From a virus, in UHGV virus genome UHGV-0137562: a stretch of 19,149 nucleotides of DNA; one strand, written 5' to 3'. Below the pieces are notes generated by a model that was not told the DNA's origin, ran no database searches, and was given only the letters and a program-made list of their open reading frames with translations. Position 1 is the stretch's first letter. The number at the start of each line of letters is the position of its first letter. Shown one piece after another: positions 16,731-17,128 of this stretch. A program made the position numbers and the translations under genes.

Positions 16731-16756
16731 AAACCCGCTTAATCGCGGGTTTTTTC
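16731..16756. terminator. Bidirectional rho-independent terminator between convergent genes
   Basis: AAACCCGC-TTAATC-GCGGGTTT hairpin (8-bp stem) flanked by an A-run and a T-run (GCGGGTTTTTTCTTTTC). Sits between the 73-aa ORF (+) and the Mnt-like gene (-), overlapping the latter's stop codon. Confidence 0.65.
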
Positions 16757-16996
16757 TTTTCTAAGGATATCAGCCGCAACTTCTTTTACTCGTTCCGAGA
16801 TTAATGAGGCCAGCCTCTCTTCTTCATCACGATACCCGCTTACAGGTGATGGTTTGGAGAGTGATTCTTCCATCGTAGCCACAATTTCGGAATTGATAGA
16901 CCTGTTATTCATTTTTGCACGCTGCTTAATCTTAGCGTGCAACTCGTGCGTAAGCCTCAAGTGGAACTGCGCCTCATCGTATTTGCTGTACATCAT
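16739..16996 (-). CDS. mnt: Mnt repressor homolog (ribbon-helix-helix), about 85 aa
   Basis: FHLRLTHELHAKIKQRAKMNNRSINSEIVATMEESLSKPSPVSGYRDEEERLA closely parallels recalled P22 Mnt (FNFRMP...ANGRSMNSELLQIVQDALSKPSPVTGYRNDAERLA). Start placed at ATGATG 16996/16993, preceded by GGTGAGG; the longer track ORF to 17077 is considered a 5' over-extension. Confidence 0.82.
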   Translation of the reverse strand: MMYSKYDEAQFHLRLTHELHAKIKQRAKMNNRSINSEIVATMEESLSKPSPVSGYRDEEERLASLISERVKEVAADILRKEKTRD

Positions 16997-17128
16997 CAAT
17001 GCCTCACCAAATGGGTGGAATGGCATCGTAAAACCTACTGTACAAATCAACAATCGTACCGTTTCGGTATGTAACAAATACCAACCGTAGCCATGCTGCG
17101 GCTATTCCTTGTATCTGGAGCAAATTAA

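Follow-up and report, generated by a model that had tools for sequence, protein, structure and literature searches.

A tailspike-adjacent gene of the Mnt repressor family and its predicted operator in the ant moron of a P22-like Escherichia coli prophage

In the immunity region immI of phage P22, the repressor Mnt, which is expressed from the prophage and needed to keep the lysogenic state, acts on the antirepressor gene ant, and a C-terminal helix, the feature that distinguishes Mnt from Arc, assembles the protein into tetramers. The N-terminal residues of P22 Mnt reportedly set its operator specificity, a result said to go back to Knight and Sauer in 1989, whom PMC3413123 cites for it. The region comprises mnt, Pmnt/Pant, Oarc, Omnt, arc, sar and ant, and the annotated gene order is mnt-arc-ant followed by a terminator, about 170 bp and then gene 9, with mnt divergent from arc-ant and no mnt gene adjoining gene 9. 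It lies in the interval known as the ant moron, a variable and independently transcribed block that separates the homologues of genes 16 and 9, is located inside the late operon and constitutes its most variable part (Villafane et al. 2008, PMC2629481). Phages ST64T, ST104 and Para1 carry mnt alone in this block (Villafane et al. 2008, PMC2629481), and in phage L an mnt-like gene likewise occurs in the absence of arc and ant (PMC8022706).

The 19,149-nt UHGV-0137562 stretch analysed here, referred to throughout as the window, represents the late region of an E. coli prophage of the P22-like type (Lederbergvirus). Homologues of the portal, scaffold, coat, tail and ejection genes are followed by one of gene 16, which ends at 13716, and the variable block between this point and the tailspike start is an ant moron that contains a sieA-like gene, two mnt homologues (mnt1 and mnt2), an arc-like gene, ant, a second antirepressor gene and orf73 (Table 1). 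The tailspike gene itself encodes a conserved N-terminal head-binding domain and a variable C-terminal part. A hairpin beyond orf73 is predicted to close the rightward ant operon at a position analogous to that of P22 t_ant, and terminators are similarly annotated at the 3′ end of the mnt gene of phage L. A permissive Rfam scan of 13600-17400 returned zero matches, sar included.

Table 1. Coordinates of the ant moron features, the mnt2-tailspike intergenic elements and the tailspike gene in the window
Feature	Position	Strand	Basis and remarks
sieA-like superinfection exclusion gene	13738-14409	minus	Left edge of the ant moron; PHROG 7745 'SieA-like', E=2e-20
mnt1, RHH repressor gene	14427-14675	minus	Classical immI position, divergent from arc-like gene; Pfam Arc, E=2e-17
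Pant-like promoter, TTGACA-16-CATAAT	14728-14755	+	Promoter scan, 11/12 consensus matches
Palindrome CATTATGA/TCATAATG at Oarc position	14732-14756		Inverted-repeat search; layout compared with P22 annotation
Palindrome ATGACATCA-TGG-TGATGTCAT at Omnt position	14762-14782		Inverted-repeat search; layout compared with P22 annotation
Arc-like RHH gene	14784-14975	+	Pfam Arc, E=1e-11; in E. coli T2 (NZ_CP114792) named 'Arc family DNA-binding protein' by PGAP
Antirepressor gene (ant), Bro-N and P22AR C-terminal domains	15049-15687	+	Pfam; PHROG 245 'anti-repressor Ant', E=5e-50
Second antirepressor-like gene	15775-16503	+	PHROG 1726 'anti-repressor', E=9e-101; KilA annotation in JEP4
orf73, 73-aa ORF	16503-16724	+	PHROG 4977 (no assigned function)
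Intrinsic terminator-like hairpin and T-run	16731-16752	+	Terminator scan; overlaps mnt2 3′ end
mnt2	16739-16996	minus	ORF, Pfam, homology to P22 Mnt
mnt2 Shine-Dalgarno, GAGG	17002-17005	minus	Read from sequence; 5 nt before ATG
Relic at Pant position	17020-17047	+	Alignment to P22; -35 ATGGCA, no usable -10 (TACAAA or ACAAAT)
Predicted Pmnt2 -10, TACGAT	17025-17030	minus	Positional homology to P22 Pmnt TATCAT
Predicted Pmnt2 -35, TTGTTG	17048-17053	minus	Positional homology to P22 Pmnt TTGAGA; 17-nt spacer
Omnt2, predicted operator GTACCGTTTCGGTAT	17056-17070		Core TACCG-TTT-CGGTA (TACCGTTTCGGTA) at 17057-17069
Boundary sequence upstream of tailspike	17084-17128	+	Right third of the intergenic region; conserved
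Boundary-sequence hairpin, CCGTAGC-CAT-GCTGCGG	17085-17101		
Tailspike Shine-Dalgarno, GGAG	17117-17120	+	Inside boundary sequence
Tailspike gene	17129-18838	+	Pfam Head_binding, E=5e-67; BLAST matches to P22-like tailspikes

Several described morons share parts of this layout. The mnt-only morons of ST64T, ST104, L, SE1 and ST160 resemble the window in that mnt is divergent from gene 9 across an intergenic region of about 135 bp that bears Pmnt, an operator and the boundary sequence, with no arc-ant genes beside the operator; they differ in the sequence of the DNA-reading β-strand and its operator (QFNLRL with AGACCAC-N-GTGGTCT) and in lacking the ant module altogether, whereas a complete one lies beyond mnt2 in the window. 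The HS (HS-1) prophage and JEP4 display the same succession of ant, second antirepressor, (orf73), mnt2 and tailspike, and the JEP4 block is 95.8% identical to that of the window over 2.2 kb, but in both a helix-turn-helix (C2-like) repressor takes the place of mnt1 and arc at the head of the ant module. A precedent for two mnt homologues in a single ant moron is provided by CUS-3, in which, however, the two genes are arranged in tandem on the far side of ant instead of flanking it.

The mnt2 gene is placed on the minus strand and encodes an 85-residue ribbon-helix-helix (RHH) protein, with its ATG at 16996, an alternative ATG at 16993 and the stop codon ending at 16739. The ORF listing had set the start at a TTG at 17077; the ATG at 16996 is preferred because of the lengths of homologous genes (258 bp in JEP4, 255 bp in the PGAP annotation) and because of the Shine-Dalgarno sequence at 17005-17002. 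The product matches the Pfam family Arc (PF03869) over residues 9-54 (E=4e-15) and its closest solved structure is 1MNT (E=3e-16), and it shares 47% identity with P22 Mnt over 73 aa, residues 7-79 of the 85. This alignment extends beyond the RHH core to take in SKPSPVSGYRDEEERLA, the linker SKPSPV(S/T)GYR and the C-terminal helix, whereas mnt1 matches P22 Mnt over the 38-aa RHH core only. The homologue in JEP4, which is 98.8% identical, is annotated as 'regulatory protein mnt'. Judged by its predicted fold, its full-length similarity and the geometry of its putative operator, mnt2 is a member of the Mnt family.

The first-pass annotation of this DNA had described the locus as a departure from P22, in which Mnt is divergent from arc-ant; here, it stated, the protein most like P22 Mnt sits head-to-head with the tailspike gene while a second Mnt-sized RHH protein takes up the classical position. 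Each of these observations is borne out by the alignments and coordinates given above, with mnt1 facing the arc-like gene and ant. The immI role of a gene that is divergent from arc-ant and represses Pant would fall to mnt1, and it does not extend to mnt2, since the divergent neighbour of mnt2 is the tailspike, no TACC-N5-GGTA site is present at the ant promoter and the equivalent of Pant has decayed. Unlike in P22, the ant operon of the window is under a different RHH pair from the full-length Mnt homologue.

A further family of small RHH proteins, the antitoxins of toxin-antitoxin pairs, is brought to mind by weak Pfam matches of the mnt2 product to two RHH antitoxin families, HicB and FitA-like. 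The gene layout effectively refutes this assignment, which is scarcely credible: mnt2 is monocistronic and accompanied by no co-transcribed toxin gene, its stop codon overlaps the terminator-like hairpin, and the next gene is convergent. The Sf101 homologue stands alone between gene 16 and the tailspike, and the similarity to P22 Mnt, C-terminal helix included, runs over the full length of the protein.

The genes mnt2 and tailspike are separated by 132 bp (16997-17128), as noted in the first pass. Alignment with P22 and other lineages identifies the left two-thirds of this region as homologous to the mnt-arc control region of P22. The predicted promoter Pmnt2 matches 7 of 12 consensus positions and was missed by the promoter scan, and it is recognized by position: the -10 element reads TATCAT in P22, TACGAT in the window, TATGAT in ST64T, TAAGAT in Gally and TATTAT in Brookers, and all lineages compared have in common a -10 of the form TAnnAT, a -35 of the form TTGnnn and a 17-nt spacer. 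Among 54 unique intergenic regions of the type that contains mnt2, invariance extends over the -10 columns, the CAAT next to the -35 and the operator half-site TACC, while the 15 nt past the operator vary. The right third of the region has a different source. Homology to HK620, CUS-3, P22 and about 960 E. coli genomes begins at 17084, and the boundary sequence that starts there is found ahead of almost every P22-like tailspike gene, carries the annotation bsq1 in CUS-3 and occurs in two copies in P22.

The positions equivalent to P22 Pant (TTGACA-17-TATATT) have been altered in every tailspike-adjacent group, with TCGGCA and TATATC in ST64T and TCGGCA and TGCATC in Gally, and in all three groups the homologous -10 is without A(-11) or T(-7). 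The promoter scan called nothing on either strand across the relic in the window. With the Pant equivalent decayed, no promoter reading into the tailspike was found: a consensus scan and manual inspection of three lineages detected no sigma-70 promoter in this direction, a weak or activator-dependent one being possible. The suggestion in the first-pass annotation that Mnt may control such a promoter is disfavoured by these findings.

The palindrome TACCGTTTCGGTA had also been noted in the first pass, at the same position but with the caveat that no operator could be called confidently; this palindrome is itself now called, with good confidence, as the predicted operator of Mnt2 (Omnt2). The comparison with P22 Omnt that had been proposed places it at the Omnt position, starting one base past the CAAT of the -35. 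The pattern TACC-N5-GGTA is retained, amid varying flanking bases, in 57 of 58 unique intergenic variants, and 0.10 occurrences per window are expected by chance. The sole other exact match in the window falls inside gene 16 (13002-13014); no second site was found at any promoter in the window, in all of the loci collected or in the whole JEP4 and Sf101 genomes, each of which has a single copy, and none is located near the ant promoter of the window. An inverted-repeat search of the intergenic region did not report Omnt2, since its arms are only 5 nt long.

The site covaries with the β-strand of the adjoining Mnt homologue. HFNFRM, the strand of P22 Mnt, occurs with GGTCCAC-N-GTGGACC, QFNLRL with AGACCAC-N-GTGGTCT, and QFHLRL, the strand of Mnt2, with (G/A)TACC-N5-GGTA(T/C). 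A Mnt-family operator is a palindrome located by the -35 of its own gene and read by the β-strand, and on position, conservation and covariation Omnt2 would qualify as one. P22 immI and the mnt2 locus resemble each other in being located between the gene 16 and gene 9 homologues, in protein family over the full length, in promoter hexamers of the form TTGnnn-17-TAnnAT and in an operator lying just past the CAAT of the -35, and they differ in strand, operator sequence, divergent neighbour and the state of Pant.

The arrangement of mnt2 was regarded in the first pass as a possible regulatory rearrangement. The layout does differ from that of P22, but it is in no way unusual. A gene-order comparison, likewise proposed there, found it to be absent from P22 itself and standard in ST64T, L, JEP4 and others: annotated genomes with mnt divergent from the tailspike comprise JEP4, VSe13, Sf101, Gally, 720R6, ST160, L, ST64T, the Proteus phage Brookers and the E. 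coli HS prophage, SE1 has the same order, and in IME10, where no gene is annotated upstream of the tailspike, tblastn gives the same mnt-tailspike layout. IMG/VR loci were further sorted by the β-strand motif of the Mnt homologue and by the divergent neighbour. Relatives of mnt2, of the QFHLRL type, have a tailspike head-binding domain as their divergent neighbour in all 79 testable loci, with a gap of 118-147 bp in 73 of these and most commonly of 132 bp; the QFNLRL type of ST64T and L is tailspike-adjacent in 65 of 65 loci; and the HFNFRM type of P22 is arc-adjacent, with ant, in 77 of 80. Tailspike adjacency is therefore the rule for the mnt2 sub-lineage and represents an ordinary, common mosaic layout of P22-like prophages, and the mnt-tailspike arrangement is an already documented variant of the ant moron.

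Whether an mnt gene parted from ant still functions has been asked before, and for phage L the possibility of a remnant was raised (PMC8022706). A non-functional vestige of a degraded immI region would be consistent with the absence of the arc-ant genes and of Pant from the mnt2 cassette. Against it stand a tblastn match that spans most or all of the ORF in 80 of 80 loci, a dN/dS of 0.01-0.09 in the RHH domain, where synonymous sites are near saturation, and promoter hexamers, Shine-Dalgarno sequence and operator half-sites that show little or no variation amid changing neighbouring bases. The window and VSe13 share about 92% identity in the mnt-proximal intergenic DNA, as compared with a pS of 0.53 in the adjacent coding sequence. 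The values of dN/dS and the conservation of the regulatory elements lead to rejection of the remnant reading, which is strongly disfavoured and very improbable; as far as sequence can tell, mnt2 is a working gene under strong purifying selection. For the question posed in the phage L paper, selection, promoter and co-varying operator all point to a working gene rather than a remnant lacking ant.

Module exchange, the other origin offered in the first pass, is indeed involved. On the side of mnt2 away from the tailspike the flank varies among the 80 loci, which comprise 25 with the two-Mnt layout, 28 with an ant module lacking arc and mnt1 and 19 in which gene 16 follows directly. A mosaic joint is also present inside mnt2, near 16862: the half encoding the RHH domain behaves as one unit with the intergenic region and the tailspike N-terminus, at 82-84% identity to IME10 and Sf101, while the C-terminal Mnt halves of IME10 and Sf101 resemble P22 Mnt. 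A DNA-binding domain that stays linked to its own operator is the expected pattern.

The observations as a whole are probably explained by a functional mnt2 with a fixed home beside the tailspike, its own Pmnt2 and operator, a decayed Pant and a mosaic origin. By homology to P22 Mnt, the protein would be made from Pmnt2 in the lysogen, with a leftward start predicted near 17018, and would bind Omnt2 as a tetramer through its N-terminal β-strand (QFHLRL, corresponding to HFNFRM in P22). The centre of Omnt2 is located about 45 bp upstream of this predicted start, so that the bound tetramer would be expected to affect mnt2 expression and thereby modulate its own synthesis. The ant operon of the window would lie outside the control of Mnt2, with mnt1 and the arc-like gene as dedicated repressors and with separate palindromes, and expression of the tailspike would depend on late-operon read-through and not on an Mnt-controlled promoter. 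The two-Mnt layout probably arose by a mosaic exchange that placed a complete mnt1-arc-ant module between gene 16 and a pre-existing mnt2-tailspike cassette.

Autoregulation with no other target does not account for the strong selection in about 150 loci, nor for the diversification of specificity. One further role would be that of a trans-acting immunity factor, by which Mnt2 represses the antirepressor promoter, or another target bearing the operator, on superinfecting relatives. P22 Mnt acts in this way on P22 ant, at least three specificities have resulted from the joint divergence of repressor and operator, as is typical of immunity systems, and purifying selection is strong even in phages devoid of ant, such as Sf101. 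However, an arc-ant operon lies beside the operator in none of the 79 QFHLRL-type and none of the 65 QFNLRL-type loci, JEP4 and Sf101 each offer one operator per genome, and no target with a cognate operator is found in these data; such a role for Mnt2 is quite improbable.

The other role to be weighed concerns the tailspike. Lambdoid phages antiterminate their late transcription, and lytic growth alone requires the tailspike. It is conceivable, if unlikely, that Mnt2 bound to Omnt2 gates transcription into the tailspike gene, either by repressing a weak promoter at the old Pant position or by acting as a roadblock to polymerases that escape the terminator of the ant operon or arrive from the late operon. 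Omnt2 is situated 60 bp ahead of the tailspike start codon, just downstream of the relic Pant, and the strict linkage of mnt and operator to the tailspike in the two tailspike-adjacent types (79/79 and 65/65) fits a function in cis; a possible effect of Mnt and Arc on the frequency with which late transcription extends to the tailspike is likewise raised as speculation in the epsilon34 paper (PMC2629481). The lack of a detectable promoter and the lost -10 bases weigh against this gate, as do the late antitermination and the restriction of tailspike need to lytic growth, and the linkage can also be explained by recombination at the boundary sequence and within the head-binding domain. A more specific version, in which Mnt supplied by a resident prophage would occupy the operator of a superinfecting relative and lower late transcription into its tailspike, with selection for this effect in cis, is rather improbable. 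If true, the gate would amount to a form of late-gene immunity and would explain the constant linkage to the tailspike, the survival of mnt without an antirepressor and the co-divergence into at least two specificities.

These results correct the impression, derived from P22, that mnt belongs beside arc-ant, a correction that carries little weight for general biology; two of the three Mnt specificity classes were found here only beside the tailspike. Two elements may be new, the explicit assignment of a predicted operator to the QFHLRL class and the sharp division of Mnt lineages into arc-adjacent and tailspike-adjacent groups; neither was found stated in a literature search of incomplete coverage. 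The operator prediction (TACC-N5-GGTA) is concrete and could serve work on DNA recognition by RHH proteins. Among 5,426 complete E. coli genomes, 61 bear the contiguous block of mnt2, intergenic region and tailspike, and 21 of these carry the whole 3.7-kb module, in which PGAP annotates three "Arc family DNA-binding proteins".

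The window's copy of the classical immI region, in which the RHH repressor gene mnt1 faces an arc-like gene followed by ant, looks fully equipped. A Pant-like promoter and two palindromes at the operator positions are packed into the mnt1-arc interval, and a promoter-like site in antisense orientation at the start of ant occupies the place that Psar holds in P22 (see table below). No match to this region was returned by the Rfam models, that for sar included. The mnt1 gene itself is an intact 82-aa ORF, with several identical IMG/VR copies; in the closest E. coli genome, that of E. 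coli T2 (98.8% identity over 3.7 kb), its homologue is a partial pseudogene according to PGAP.

Features of the window and of compared loci
Feature	Position	Remark
Pant-like promoter, TTGACA-16-CATAAT	within 14728-14783	near-consensus
8+8 palindrome	within 14728-14783	at Oarc position
Perfect 9-3-9 palindrome, ATGACATCA-TGG-TGATGTCAT	within 14728-14783	at Omnt position
Antisense promoter-like site, TTAAAA-16-TATAAT	15071-15098	start of ant
Hairpin, CCGTAGC-CAT-GCTGCGG	17085-17101	conserved; 27 nt upstream of tailspike start codon
Mosaic joint	~16862	inside mnt2 coding sequence
TACC-N5-GGTA, TACCAATATGGTA	13002-13014	within gene 16 homologue
Same site, E. coli HS	L014 803-815	
mnt1 homologue, E. 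coli T2	L015 2333-2479	
AT-rich stretch, JEP4	L001 4526-4848	
P22 mnt	NC_002371 14519-14770	ATPase label
Sf101 mnt	14284-14577	ATPase label

Upstream of the tailspike gene lies a hairpin whose 5' edge coincides exactly with the onset of homology to approximately 960 E. coli genomes, HK620 and CUS-3, where this boundary sequence is annotated as bsq1. Its pairing is retained in 12 diverse sequences, chiefly via wobble changes, with one compensatory change (G-C to U-A) among them, and in P22 the hairpin occurs twice upstream of gene 9. The element might serve in RNA processing or stability, or might mark a recombination boundary.

In JEP4 and in five further loci (L018, L024, L028, L218 and L239), an unrelated AT-rich stretch of 250-680 bp separates the tailspike start from the rest of the recognisable tailspike sequence. 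The order in JEP4 and several IMG/VR loci, in which this stretch comes after the intergenic DNA and a few opening codons of the tailspike (ATGACAGATATTATA...) and true tailspike/head-binding homology follows it, suggests an insertion or replacement immediately past the gene start, the same place at which an HNH endonuclease is annotated in Kapi1.

A mosaic joint is also present within mnt2, the Mnt-family gene divergent from the tailspike gene. The DNA homology of IME10 and Sf101 (82-84%) takes in just the half of mnt2 that codes for the RHH domain, together with the intergenic DNA and the part encoding the tailspike N-terminus. In their C-terminal halves, the Mnt proteins of these two phages are closer to P22 Mnt than to the window protein. 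Mnt RHH repressors of 83-85 aa are named 'partition protein ATPase' or 'chromosome segregation ATPase' in several RefSeq records and in PHROG 795 and PHROG 2685, a propagated misannotation, since these proteins have no ATPase domain.

The predicted Mnt2 operator pattern has a second exact match in the window, within the gene 16 homologue, with 0.1-0.3 occurrences per window expected by chance. This site is also found in E. coli HS, L093 and L083, the last of which retains it at only 74% protein identity in gene 16, and the match could reflect coincidence or coding constraint.
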